DNA of 64,000 nt from a bacterium (GCA_963693055.1 OY843751.1:3936001-4000000), one strand, 5' to 3'; shown: positions 53,235 to 63,374, counted from the first letter of the stretch. Program-made: numbers and translations. The notes: generated by a model not told the origin, from the letters alone.

Positions 53235-55022
53235 ATGTTAAAAAAGATGGTAGTTGCAGTATTCATTCTCAGCACTATACTCATGGCAGAGCCGTATGTT
53301 GACAAAGTATTACTATTAAGTGGGGATGGTGATTTTGTAAAACTACCCAAACCTGTCATTGAATCAAACGTATTTACCATAGAAGCCTTTGCGTATATGC
53401 ATGCCAAAGGTGGCGGTTATTATCATCAAAATCCTTTATTTCAACAACGTGATATGGCTACAGAATATAACGATGGCAAATCTGCAATTGTTTTCTGTGC
53501 TGACATGCAATACAATGAAACGTATCTGGCAGTAAGAGATGAAAATCAACTGGTTTATCGTCTAACCTGCCCTTCTCCTGATTTTGGTCAATGGAACCAC
53601 TATGCAGTAGTTGTTCTCCATGATGTTATGTATCTCTATATCAATGGACAGTTGAAGGATATACAGGAACGTGCCGACCAGGGATCTTTTCTGGAATCTC
53701 TTGACTATATTGACATTGGCAGAAGCAGAAGCAAAGAGATTGATACCGGTTTTTTTAACGGAATGATCAATGAAATGCGAATTTGGGACCATGCTATGAG
53801 CGGTTCTCAAATTCAGGAATTAAGTACCATTAACAATCTGGAAGCCCAGGTAGAACAAACAAATAGCATAGGCCTGGCAGCTTATTGGGATTTCAATAAC
53901 GTAAAATATGTTATGAATAATCAAGATGTATTGGAAAGTTACGTTATTGACAAATCAGGGAATGGAAATGATGGCTTGATGATTGATAAAGCAGCCATCG
54001 TTCCTTATACCGATCAACTTGAAGATAACAAAATCCAATTTTCAACAGTTCCCTATTTTAACGGACAAAGCCATGTTATTACACCTGTTTATATCGACCT
54101 TGACAACCAGGACGATATAAATAAAATCAGAATCACATGCGATGGATTTGCTGGCAATGCAATAGCTAAAGGTGCAAACTTTAATCCCGAAATGGTTGAT
54201 CCCTCCAATTCATCAGTATACTGTTGGATGGAAGGTGATGAAATGATATTAAAGGTTATGAGTTCCAGTCCCATTAAGCCCAAAGGAGAGCTTGCATATG
54301 TCGCATGGGAAATACAACCGCAAGCCAGTGGTCTTGTTCCCATCACAACCAACAAATGCCAAATAAATGATCTTGATATATCTGCAACTTTTGTAGAAGG
54401 TGGAATTTATATTCTTGAAAACGATGATACCAATCCCGTTACTTTTGCAAATTTGAGTGCTTCATACAATCCTGATCAAGGTGTTGTTGTGGAATGGCAA
54501 ACCCATTCAGAGACCAACAACCTGGGCTTTAATATCTATTCAAGCGCATTCGCAAATGGCCCCTGGACTAGAGTTAACAGTACTCTCATTCCTGGCGCAG
54601 GTACGTCAGCAGACAAGAAACAGTACAACTTTACAGATGAAACCAATAGCAGCAATAATACTTTATATTATAAAGTTGAACAAATGGATACAGACGGCAC
54701 CTCTACTTTTTATGGCCCCGTTCAATTGAGTGGAGCACTTGCCACCTATTACAGTCTGAGACGTAACTATCCCAATCCATTTAACCCGACTACCAATATC
54801 GAGTATACTATTGCCAAAGAAGGCAATGTTGATGTTTCCATTTACAACATTCAAGGCCAGTTGATCAAAAATCTGGTCAATACTCAACAGGCTGCCGGCT
54901 ATTACAACCTCAAATGGGATGCTACCGATATGTATGGTAATTCAGTATCCACAGGTATCTATTTTGTGAAAATGCAATCAGGTGATTTTACCAAAATACA
55001 CAAAATGACATTTGAAAAATAA
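53235..55022 (+). CDS. Secreted LamG-like + cohesin-like + C-terminal sorting/FlgD-Ig domain protein (paralogue)
   Basis: Same LamG motifs; W.T.SETNNLGFNIY domain; NYPNPFN. Confidence 0.85.
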   Translation: MLKKMVVAVFILSTILMAEPYVDKVLLLSGDGDFVKLPKPVIESNVFTIEAFAYMHAKGGGYYHQNPLFQQRDMATEYNDGKSAIVFCADMQYNETYLAVRDENQLVYRLTCPSPDFGQWNHYAVVVLHDVMYLYINGQLKDIQERADQGSFLESLDYIDIGRSRSKEIDTGFFNGMINEMRIWDHAMSGSQIQELSTINNLEAQVEQTNSIGLAAYWDFNNVKYVMNNQDVLESYVIDKSGNGNDGLMIDKAAIVPYTDQLEDNKIQFSTVPYFNGQSHVITPVYIDLDNQDDINKIRITCDGFAGNAIAKGANFNPEMVDPSNSSVYCWMEGDEMILKVMSSSPIKPKGELAYVAWEIQPQASGLVPITTNKCQINDLDISATFVEGGIYILENDDTNPVTFANLSASYNPDQGVVVEWQTHSETNNLGFNIYSSAFANGPWTRVNSTLIPGAGTSADKKQYNFTDETNSSNNTLYYKVEQMDTDGTSTFYGPVQLSGALATYYSLRRNYPNPFNPTTNIEYTIAKEGNVDVSIYNIQGQLIKNLVNTQQAAGYYNLKWDATDMYGNSVSTGIYFVKMQSGDFTKIHKMTFEK

Positions 55023-60289: not shown

Positions 60290-61447
60290 ATGAAAAAATT
60301 ATTAATTCTATTATTATTATTCGCAAGTATCACTGCCGCGCAAACCTATGATTTCACCCTGACAGTTCAAAATCAACAGGTTAGTGGTTCTGATTTCATT
60401 TTTGATATTTATATGTTAAGGACCGGTTCGGCAGATATTTATTTGGGTGAATGTGATTTCGTTCTTACGTTTAACAATGGTAATTTTACCAGTCCGGTTG
60501 CTTCTGTTGTAACTGCGGAATCAAGAATAGCCACTTGGTATACATTATCCCCAACTATTGAAGCTACGAACAGGATAATATTAAATGTCCAAAAAGCACC
60601 ATTTAGCAACCAAACCGATTTTGATAATCGAGTACAGGTTATTGGTACATCCGGGAATGGTACGCTGATTGCGCAAATAAAGATCACCAACATTAGCAAC
60701 GCCGGTGGTACTGCGGGATTACAGTGGAGAACATCTGATCTTAATAAAACAAATATTCAGAGACTTGATAATACAGATCCCTGGGCGCTGGTTAATATTA
60801 CATCAAGCGGTACCTATACCAATCCATCGGATGCAAGTCTGCCGGTTAGTCTGGCTTCTTTTAATGCAACCAGCACCCCGCAAGGTGTATTGCTGACATG
60901 GGCAACCGAGAGCGAAATGAACAACCTGGGTTATATTCTGGAGAAACAATTGATCGGTGAAACCCAGTGGACACAGGTAGCCAACTATAAAACCCATGAC
61001 GAATTGAAAGGTCAGGACAATTCGACAACCCGGCATGATTATTCTTTTACCGATAAAAATGTACAGGCCAACAGTGAATATACCTATCGTCTCTCAGATG
61101 TAGACAAGGATGGAAATAGATCAGTTAAAAAAAGTATTGATGTAACGGTTACCGCAATTGTACCCAAAACTACAGCATTGCTGCATCCATATCCAAATCC
61201 ATTCAACCCCGAAACAAAAATCAGATACGACCTTGCAAAAGATGCCAATGTAGATCTGTTTATTGTAGATATATTAGGCCGCTCAGTGGTTAAACTGATT
61301 GACAATCAGCAAACTCAAGCGGGTTCTTATCATATCACCTGGAATGGTCAGTCTGCTGCAGGCAATTATGCAGCCAGCGGCACCTACTTTGTGGTATTTA
61401 ATGCTGATAATGTAAGACACATCCAAAAAGTTGTATTTTTGAAATAG
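60290..61447 (+). CDS. Secreted cohesin-like + 'LPV...W.T.SE.NN.G' domain + C-terminal sorting/FlgD-Ig protein
   Basis: Signal peptide, beta-sandwich N-domain (FDIY...LG..DFVLTFN), YPNPFNP...SGTYF; GGAGG RBS. Confidence 0.75.
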   Translation: MKKLLILLLLFASITAAQTYDFTLTVQNQQVSGSDFIFDIYMLRTGSADIYLGECDFVLTFNNGNFTSPVASVVTAESRIATWYTLSPTIEATNRIILNVQKAPFSNQTDFDNRVQVIGTSGNGTLIAQIKITNISNAGGTAGLQWRTSDLNKTNIQRLDNTDPWALVNITSSGTYTNPSDASLPVSLASFNATSTPQGVLLTWATESEMNNLGYILEKQLIGETQWTQVANYKTHDELKGQDNSTTRHDYSFTDKNVQANSEYTYRLSDVDKDGNRSVKKSIDVTVTAIVPKTTALLHPYPNPFNPETKIRYDLAKDANVDLFIVDILGRSVVKLIDNQQTQAGSYHITWNGQSAAGNYAASGTYFVVFNADNVRHIQKVVFLK

Positions 61448-61450
61448 TAT

Positions 61451-61465
61451 CATATGACCAGAGGA
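61451..61465 (+). repeat. Left terminal inverted repeat
   Basis: CATATGACCAGAGGA. Confidence 0.7.
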
Positions 61466-61572
61466 GAAAAAGAAATTTATAAAACCCCCTAAAAATACAA
61501 CGGAGCGTCAGATCATTAATAAATTTGGTGATCTGTCATTCTGAAAGTAATAAAAGGGAAATATAAAAGCAA

Positions 61573-62397
61573 CTAATTGTTCTTTGAAAGATTCAACTGA
61601 CTCCTTTGATTTTTAATTTTATCAGGCAAAAGATCAACATATTGTTGTATGACACGTTTGGAAAGTCTTGCCAGCTGGCTGATTTGATCAAGGTTTTTAA
61701 TGTCATGCTTCCAAAGTAATTCAACACGATGGTAATCTTTGATATACCTGTCAACCGCTTCGTTGCTGTGTTTGGTTTTCAAAGCGATTTCGGGAGTGAG
61801 ATATCCCTCAAGATACAGAGTGATAATTTCGCGTTTATGAGTAATAGCGCCGGAAAGATCATGGATGTTGCCACGCGTTGGTAAGAGATGCCCTTCTTTT
61901 TGGATTTCATTTACATATTTACTGACAACGGCATCACAGACACCGAGTAACATAGCCAGGTCAAGTTGAGTAAGCAGAGCACCTTGATCAAAAGCTTCAT
62001 CAACCCAACGTTTGAGGCGTCTTTTCCTTAAAGTTTTGGAATCAAAACCATGCGCGATATGAGAAGTATCCTGATCAGTAATGAAAGAGAGGACAACGGG
62101 TTTCATTCGGGTAGCGGCAATACTTTTTCCGCGTTTGGGGTATTCATCGACAGGAACAGCCATCCAGACGAGTTGCCCATAGTGAATATGGTGCAAGTCA
62201 TCATCAATAGAGGAGACAAGGAAATAGTCATCAATGATTTTAAGGATATCATCAATGATGGCATTGGCAGTGATGGCTCCTTTGTCATAGCCATAGCTAT
62301 TCAAAAAGTTGTACAGTAGTAACTGCTTGAGATCTTTATCTTTAAGTCGTCTCATTTTTTTGAGTTGAATTTGTTCTTTAGTCAAAGGTTTACTCAT
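61573..62397 (-). CDS. DUF1670-like protein B
   Basis: EAFDQGALLTQLDLAMLL, LPTRGNIHD, HKREII.LYL.G, HS..AVDRY; GGAGG RBS before ATG 62397 that overlaps the stop of gene A (ATGAGTAA). Confidence 0.8.
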   Translation of the reverse strand: MSKPLTKEQIQLKKMRRLKDKDLKQLLLYNFLNSYGYDKGAITANAIIDDILKIIDDYFLVSSIDDDLHHIHYGQLVWMAVPVDEYPKRGKSIAATRMKPVVLSFITDQDTSHIAHGFDSKTLRKRRLKRWVDEAFDQGALLTQLDLAMLLGVCDAVVSKYVNEIQKEGHLLPTRGNIHDLSGAITHKREIITLYLEGYLTPEIALKTKHSNEAVDRYIKDYHRVELLWKHDIKNLDQISQLARLSKRVIQQYVDLLPDKIKNQRSQLNLSKNN

Positions 62398-63229
62398 TTT
62401 CTTTGCCTCCTGATAGATGTTGAGGAATGGATTTTTTTTTCGCGTCGCCACCAGGTTCCGCAGGAGATAACAGATCGTTTAATCGCGTATTGTTTTGTTG
62501 AAGATAGGTTTGGTAGAGTTGGATATACTCGCGCACCAGGCGGTCGGATTTCTTTGCAATGAGTCGAATCTGGTTCGGAGAGAAATTTTCCTTGTATAAA
62601 AGGGCGATCTGCATAAAGTCAGCGAGGTAACGTTTGATGCTGGTTTCAGAATGATTGGTTTTTTGTTCTATTTCTGAAAAGGTATAACCTTTAAGATACA
62701 GATCAATAATGATGGTTTTATGAGACAGTCCGGGACCCATGTCATGTTTCATACCTCGTGTCATGATAAACATACCGTGATGACGGAGATGATAAATGTC
62801 ACGTTTAACAGTGGCCGGACTGGTGGTTAAAAGCATTGCCAGGTCTTCATAGCTGAGTAAAGCACCCTGATCATAGGCTTGTCGAGTCAGACGGGCGATC
62901 CGGTGTCGTCTAAGTCCGGCAAGGCCATAATTAGCCAGGGCTTGCAGATCTGTATTAAAGTCAATTAGTTTGAGACGGACCGTAAGCTTTCGGGTTAATC
63001 TGATATGTTTGCCGGCTGGTTCTTCAGCGGCAACAGCTTCATAAGCGACTTCACCTCCTGATAATGAAATGTTGGAATGTTCCTGAAAGTATTGGTCAAA
63101 TTGTTGATAGTAAGCTTCGGCAATAATAGGAGTCAAATTGAAATCCTGAGACAGTTTTTGGACAATAGCGTTTTTAGCTGTCTTGGATTCGAGTCTTTTT
63201 AAACCATAATTATTTTTAACATCTGCCAT
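62390..63229 (-). CDS. DUF1670-like protein A
   Basis: QAYDQGALLSYEDLAMLL, TRGMKHDMGPGLSHK, HSETSIKRY; AAGGAG RBS before ATG 63229 (ORF-track start at 63427 lies outside the element). Confidence 0.8.
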   Translation of the reverse strand: MADVKNNYGLKRLESKTAKNAIVQKLSQDFNLTPIIAEAYYQQFDQYFQEHSNISLSGGEVAYEAVAAEEPAGKHIRLTRKLTVRLKLIDFNTDLQALANYGLAGLRRHRIARLTRQAYDQGALLSYEDLAMLLTTSPATVKRDIYHLRHHGMFIMTRGMKHDMGPGLSHKTIIIDLYLKGYTFSEIEQKTNHSETSIKRYLADFMQIALLYKENFSPNQIRLIAKKSDRLVREYIQLYQTYLQQNNTRLNDLLSPAEPGGDAKKKSIPQHLSGGKENE

Positions 63230-63267
63230 AAGAATCTCCTTATTTCTGTTTTTATTAAAACAATGAT

Positions 63268-63282
63268 TCCTATGGTCATATG
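63268..63282 (-). repeat. Right terminal inverted repeat
   Basis: TCCTATGGTCATATG = reverse complement CATATGACCATAGGA. Confidence 0.7.
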
Positions 63283-63307
63283 CACTAAACTTTAAATAAT
63301 AAAATCC

Positions 63308-63341
63308 GGCTGGCAGAAATCTAAACTGCCAGCCTTTCCTT
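63308..63341 (+). terminator. Terminator hairpin, probably the displaced terminator of the S8/cohesin operon
   Basis: GGCTGGCAG-AAATCTAAA-CTGCCAGCC-TTTCCTT with no + strand gene immediately upstream in the present arrangement. Confidence 0.65.
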
Positions 63342-63374
63342 GCCTCTCGCATCTCTCTTACTCTCAATTTCTTC

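Follow-up and report, generated by a model that had tools for sequence, protein, structure and literature searches.

To our knowledge, prokaryotic transposition relies on few known chemistries, those of the DDE, DEDD, HUH, serine and tyrosine enzymes. Features of Tn916, Tn554, CTnDOT and XerC/D, as well as those of IS630/Tc1-mariner, IS3/IS1, IS200/IS605 and the topoisomerase/Spo11 enzymes, are used below for comparison as general background. For the IS1111 group, published work describes subterminal inverted repeats of 11-13 bp, extensions of 7/3 or 6/3 bp and specific, oriented targets (PMC11187229). The element described here, found in a 64-kb stretch of bacterial DNA (the window), has a comparable geometry, contains two paralogous DUF1670 genes, and lies outside the known transposase classes that could be tested.

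A recently multiplied insertion element

The source genome consists of a single contig of 6.54 Mb (G000:C1) and is 100% complete. A search for extra copies recovered six copies of the element, identical across 1852 bp (family A; Table 1). The same genome contains a second DUF1670-pair family of 1886 bp (family B) in seven copies, six of them within 4 differences and one ~93% identical. The repeats of family B differ from those of family A and its genes are oppositely oriented relative to the ends; the target class is the same. The family B copy at 507851 has a family A copy inserted into its right end. The depth of the family A element is ~5-7x that of its flanks, as estimated from contigs of the same sample, which do not constitute independent evidence.

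Empty sequences were predicted for seven sites, representing 8 of the 13 copies, and all seven were found empty in a genome of the same genus (G001), aligning without gaps through the junction in each case. Two of these sites show small gaps 7-10 bp downstream of the junction; the predicted AAG TAG is present at one site, and one ortholog reads AAA versus the predicted AAG. A 97% identical ortholog of the host gene in the window, without the element, terminates in AAA TAA. Dispersed near-identical copies, fixed ends and empty sites, the characteristics of an insertion sequence, are all in evidence: the family A element is a recently multiplied, site-specific insertion element.

The initial annotation had already read the locus as an IS-like element. 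Orthologous loci do not always contain the pair, the G001 ortholog being empty, and in that ortholog the gene followed by its hairpin, the arrangement that removal of the element was expected to give back, is directly visible. The terminator hairpin noted past the right end is present (folding energy -17.9 kcal/mol for 63301-63345), as is the inverted repeat at 61451-61465 and 63268-63282, with 1 mismatch in 15. By itself this repeat is unremarkable, falling outside the 25 longest of 204 inverted pairs between 58000 and 64000; what shows it to be real is that all six copies terminate there and that 47 full elements have the same ends. The extent first proposed, 61447..63285, was sound with respect to the repeat and the genes but not the borders, the right end lying 9 bp past 63285. 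Similarly, the start of the element, first placed at the stop codon of the upstream gene, is inside the last (Lys) codon. The initial annotation had also missed which targets are used, where the element truly ends and that the genome has a second family.

Table 1. Coordinates of the features discussed (positions in the window, unless the source-genome contig G000:C1 is named)
Feature	Coordinates	Strand	Basis or remark
DUF1670-pair insertion element, family A	61443..63294	.	six identical copies; ortholog in G001 empty
AA common to both family A element borders	61442-61443 and 63294-63295		sequence
Host gene, 385 aa, FlgD-Ig / Por secretion C-terminal sorting domain	60290..61447	+	
Lys codon of host gene; stop TAG, which comes from the family A element	61442-61444; 61445-61447	+	
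Short-extension end: core A, 3-bp extension ATA, then subterminal repeat	61443..61465	+	sequence; 58 left junctions
Dyad TCATATGA within subterminal repeat of short-extension end	61450-61457	+	
3' non-coding region	61466..61572	-	not conserved in relatives; no guide-like target match
ORF2, DUF1670, 274 aa	61573..62397	-	Pfam; purifying selection
ORF1, DUF1670, 279 aa	62390..63229	-	Pfam; predicted structure
Candidate active site (inferred), ORF1 residues 158-201	62627..62758	-	R158, D163, H170, K171, H193, R200, Y201
A9 run near ORF1 end	62432..62440	-	ORF2 frame open from upstream of run
Long-extension end: subterminal repeat (63268-63286), 7-bp extension AAACTTT (63287-63293), core A	63268..63294	+	
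Leftover of original target: final two Lys-codon bases and original TAA stop	63295..63299	+	
Terminator-like hairpin of host gene, displaced by insertion	63308..63334	+	also at empty G001 site
Family B copies	G000:C1 507851, 987154, 1350138, 2174033, 2264852, 5212790, 6168691		
26-bp match, family B hairpin / IS3-like element end	G000:C1 2227121-2227146 and 2152972-2152997		

Natural ORF-less miniatures of ~130-150 bp, which bear both A-type ends at the same targets (L112, L179 and L182), appear to move in trans. Decayed single family B ends are found at the stop codons of genes for C-terminal sorting domains (CTD; G000:C1 1730452, 3844070, 5684744 and 5975653; L095), and at G000:C1 333440 a deletion fuses a CTD gene to a family B right end; these are traces of older insertions. 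Two other loci (L106 and L156) present a solo-dyad relic and two long ends joined back to back. At L073, the first part of ORF1 is fused to the last part of ORF2 at a shared THS motif, with both ends intact, apparently through internal deletion. The genome designated G127 harbors another multicopy DUF1670-pair family with ends of its own, located beside CTD genes (L232, L236, L240 and L242), together with A-type copies. Family B shares 26 bp of its 3' hairpin region with one end region of an IS3-like (integrase-core) element that is present in two copies. The contigs listed for one sample show neither a circle nor an excision joint, and tblastn gave no match in plasmid and phage collections.

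Target choice and junctions

The terminal Lys codon of CTD genes, the products of which end in a type-IX-like sorting domain of the YPNPFNP...KMxLLK type, is the site of 11 of the 13 family A and family B copies. The remaining two comprise one copy nested in a family B end and one in a non-coding repeat. The latter, the sole insertion that is neither nested nor in a CTD gene, is positioned at the end of a dispersed repeat (L344, L335; G000:C1 ~6088040-6088450), many partial copies of which occur in G001. By regular expression, the source genome contains ~224 CTD genes, 158 of them Lys-ending, and CTD Lys-stop sites are enriched with P 1e-24 versus all 34,668 AAR-TRR sites and P 7e-7 versus Lys-ending ORFs. 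The host protein remains unchanged, because a new Lys codon and stop come with the element, and the insertion displaces the terminator of the host gene. A-type elements with the same target are present in records titled Ignavibacteria, Poribacteria, Cloacimonadota and Bacteroidota. Between positions 53235 and 61447 of the window, features of the Ig-like or C-terminal sorting type are seen in three genes; one of them, coding for 1032 aa, would by its motifs specify a subtilisin-like protease.

Other subfamilies, represented by few and mostly single-copy loci, have different targets: for L007 and L010 the GAA loop of a hairpin, for L314 an AT-rich site, and for L310 and L312 a site that codes for Ile-Glu-Glu. 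All of these appear to cross over at AA, in a reading that leaves out three further four-module loci.

The last codon at the 58 left junctions is AAA in 55 cases, CAA in two and AGA in one, and never AAG; the left flanks are always target-derived. Among 114 right ends, a few of which are chance matches, 106 read TTTA or TATA, the two bases that follow are AA in 78, AG in 28 and GA in two, and a stop codon is next at 105. It follows from the left and right counts that the third codon base is not duplicated and that flanking target is not carried over. The two junctions have at most AA in common, and no TA.

A shared dinucleotide would also be expected of a cut-and-paste element with a cryptic metal-dependent site and a 2-bp AA target duplication. 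AA does occur at both junctions, the empty sites fit a 2-bp duplication or a shared core alike, L002 has AG at both junctions, and residues D94, E128, D129 and D163 are fairly conserved. The repeats, however, are subterminal, the AlphaFold2 model contains no RNase H-like sheet, and the two junctions may differ, with CA at the left and AA at the right in L082 and L135, and AA at one and TG at the other in L003 (same record as L035). Taken together, the four cases of variant junctions seem to fit exchange within the dinucleotide better than strict 2-bp duplication, and we give the cut-and-paste element with a metal-dependent site next to no weight.

Each end includes a dyad of ~12 bp inside a subterminal repeat of 13-19 bp, with extensions around the AA of 7+AA+3 in family A and 6+AA+3 in family B. 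This is the geometry of IS1111-type elements (11-13 bp subterminal repeats, 7/3 or 6/3 bp extensions; PMC11187229), and the copies might thus be non-autonomous members of that group, in which the DUF1670 genes are passengers and a DEDD transposase acts in trans. Against this, PF02371 (IS110 family) was not found in the complete genome with its 13 recent copies, the non-coding region is neither conserved nor provides a guide-like match, and end type follows the DUF1670 clade; we consider such passengers extremely unlikely. A guide RNA found no support, the target match being 7.09 versus 6.90 nt, with no excess, in 45 elements (some with mis-delimited non-coding regions), and Rfam gave no match.

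The 12 multicopy-repeat representatives scanned include 10 DDE transposases, one Ig-domain gene and one without a Pfam match, and the other IS ends inspected in the source genome are unlike those of the DUF1670 elements. A multicopy 1.47-kb IS-like repeat (L354, G000:C1:1489160-1490626) contains a 384-aa ORF without a Pfam match at E 1e-5. In an end-first test, which is a weak one, 17 of 41 long matches to a 20-mer end pattern held both genes; on reading, most of the others are chance 20-mer matches without target continuation. The ends of four-module elements contain TTGACA and TATAAT, at first sight a promoter at the circle junction, but the target reading frame in few loci would place the two 7 bp apart. 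The best promoter consensus score at the predicted junction is 8-9 of 12.

The DUF1670 proteins and their candidate active site

As first annotated, the two minus-strand genes are paralogous: both belong to Pfam DUF1670 (E 9.8e-59 and 198.8 bits for ORF1, E 2.1e-62 and 210.8 bits for ORF2; gathering cut-off 25) and they are 34% identical over 196 aa. The family (PF07900) is, as had been noted, assigned no function by Pfam. One search yielded 980 DUF1670 homologues, many on element-sized contigs, and another 1230 cluster representatives. DUF1670 occurs in 16 of 61 relatives and 25 of 113 genomes of the phylum, in 37 of 401 and 2 of 301 genomes of the phyla of G126 and G125, respectively, and in atlas clusters that include archaea. 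Other DUF1670 pairs likewise have flanking subterminal repeats, though these are unclear at some single-copy loci. Neither DUF1670 nor PF07900 was found by name, and no description of a DUF1670-type element was found, in the literature searched, which lay mostly outside the subscription journals and, for the element, outside ISfinder.

Both ORFs are under purifying selection (dN/dS ~0.03-0.12 in 20 comparisons), which would also fit an accessory role for the pair. In a quick tree, built from 59 modules that represent 30 chosen loci, ORF1 separates from ORF2 (SH-aLRT 98/98) with mirrored subclades; on this tree the two are ancient sister clades, and end type tracks the DUF1670 clade. Natural fusions of 2 to 4 DUF1670 modules exist, and of 17 long proteins scanned, 16 have no Pfam domain besides DUF1670 and HTH and one has EamA. 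Of 40 junctions, 38 have an A run of at least 7 close to where ORF1 ends, a count made with no control and with both shift directions, and the A9 run of the family A element is a possible slippage site for an ORF1-ORF2 fusion.

The absence of a known transposase or recombinase signature, noted at the outset, extends to all Pfam and NCBIfam families at E up to 1, and no known IS-family transposase is among the sequence and structure matches listed for the two proteins. No DDE domain was identified by sequence in either ORF or in the long fused proteins (Pfam, NCBIfam), nor any catalytic Ser or resolvase domain by Pfam, the only Ser conserved at >=80% being S228 at the start of an HTH helix. The H-hydrophobic-H motif of HUH enzymes does not occur, as the conserved His residues are 23 apart. 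The AlphaFold2 model of ORF1 (pLDDT 88.7, pTM 0.61) comprises N-terminal helices and a beta hairpin, a winged HTH at residues 91-157, and HTH units at 170-213 and 218-244. Only ordinary DNA-binding HTH or regulator folds are among the matches listed (best Z 6.5 and 7.3), and no recombinase catalytic domain is among those listed in four PDB fold searches, which barely cover residues 1-100. A match to the Topo VI-A fold (Z 5.5) covers residues 100-160, is tied with many regulators and leaves Y201 outside. PDB sequence searches with DUF1670 gave nothing under E 0.04, PHROGs matches are mostly to regulator or DNA-binding families, viral folds gave no match at E 0.001, and an atlas search excluding DUF1670 reached 0.81 at best.

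Of 96 sequences selected for their length, all have R158, and 91, 90 and 93 have H170, H193 and Y201, respectively. We rely on this set and on 59 non-redundant modules collected with no motif filter, the invariance in alignment A2 being partly circular (fragments picked by motif). The 59 modules all contain R113, and 51 of them combine H170, H193 and Y201; R158 (35/59) and R200 (36/59) are not universal. Of the eight modules in which the triad is missing, two are unexplained by fusion duplication. In fused proteins, neither His is present in six extra modules, five of which are without the Tyr as well, and these modules retain R113 and G159. Residues that are dispensable for the fold in duplicates and kept in both main modules behave, we infer, like an active site, and their concerted loss speaks against a role in structure alone. 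HTH cores usually have an aromatic residue where Y201 stands, and its conservation could therefore be structural or related to DNA binding; catalysis by tyrosine chemistry is a guess, to which we give not quite equal chances. A Spo11-like RDIY motif in ORF1 was discarded, Y146 not being conserved.

The pair had been proposed as the mobilisation machinery of the element. Mobility itself is now established, and the role of the pair as catalyst is strongly suggested, not demonstrated; we believe that the two proteins probably form a new, HTH-built recombinase that catalyses movement of the element. They might otherwise serve only as an adaptor that binds the ends and target, with cutting and joining performed by host XerC/D, another recombinase, a topoisomerase or a repair nuclease. 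Elements that hijack XerCD provide a precedent, only HTH folds are predicted, and each of the 13 genomes searched has host tyrosine recombinases, the source genome having 7 tyrosine recombinase matches and 1 resolvase. Such a division of labor is nevertheless unlikely, given that the family spans bacteria and archaea, has several end sequences unrelated to one another and uses three or more types of target, that the triad is disrupted in extra modules where the wHTH residues remain, and that the targets do not resemble dif.

DUF1670 could also be a highly diverged tyrosine recombinase, the pair being akin to XerC/D or to TnpA/TnpB of Tn554. There are indeed two paralogues and dyad-containing ends with an 11-12 bp spacer, and in one cropped alignment the G...H...Y spacing is in register with box II. 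Conversely, the hhalign probability versus 6-34 recombinase sequences is 0.3-1.8%, box I TGxR, HxxR and a PF00589 match are lacking, and there is neither 6-8 bp overlap homology nor coupling-sequence carry-over (right ends TTTA/TATA in 106/114). We regard this origin as very unlikely, and homology to tyrosine recombinases was rejected at the sequence level by the negative profile comparison.

Proposed mechanism and comparison with known systems

With the DUF1670 pair as recombinase, ORF1 and ORF2 would act together, as a heterodimer or a slippage fusion, their HTH units binding the ~12-bp dyad in each end. The two proteins would pair the ends, probably via a circular intermediate, and would themselves recognize the degenerate target (AA at -15/-14; T at -11, -8, -5 and -2; then AAR-TRR). 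Strands would be exchanged inside the AA, at cuts no more than 2 nt apart. The catalytic residues, placed on an HTH scaffold, would be H170, K171, H193, R200 and, as the nucleophile, Y201, a speculative assignment held with somewhat less than even confidence. In its full form, the proposal would define a new recombinase class composed of HTH modules only, with a His-Lys/His/Arg-Tyr site and an obligate paralogue pair, capable of guide-free, precise integration at a degenerate coding motif or hairpin loops, the target being evolvable and the AA core kept; our judgment on this complete version is evenly balanced.

A widespread, recently active element without the domains of the known chemistries points to another chemistry, and DUF1670 gains a testable function. 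The choice of target, the ends of a ~224-member gene family with the stop codon rebuilt, illustrates how an element can spare its host. With its two 275-aa proteins, its short ends and its miniatures, the system is compact; it is testable in E. coli and could become a scarless integrase. Annotation tools keyed on known transposases would overlook DUF1670 elements.

Families A and B match the IS1111 group (IS110 family) in repeat and extension geometry and in their specific, oriented targets (PMC11187229). Some DUF1670 subfamilies also target hairpin loops, as in IS1111. Unlike IS1111, the DUF1670 element has two genes and no DEDD transposase, and it has no conserved long non-coding region or guide match and no strong predicted junction promoter.

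With Tn916, Tn554, CTnDOT and XerC/D the DUF1670 elements have in common paired paralogues, no clear target duplication and a conserved His...Tyr in a three-helix unit; profile similarity, the TGxR and HxxR motifs and coupling-sequence exchange set those systems apart. The likeness to IS630/Tc1-mariner and IS3/IS1 concerns the approximate IS size, HTH end-binding domains, a junction dinucleotide, and overlapping ORFs with an A run. In contrast to these, DUF1670 has no DDE domain, both ORFs are paralogues, and the dinucleotide is AA, located within a long degenerate target and not always duplicated. The H-hydrophobic-H motif distinguishes IS200/IS605 (HUH Y1) elements, which would otherwise resemble DUF1670 in His/His/Tyr chemistry and do so in the lack of target duplication. 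Finally, type II topoisomerases and Spo11 (5Y-CAP) differ from DUF1670 in possessing a Toprim domain, and would share with it a catalytic Tyr on an HTH scaffold.
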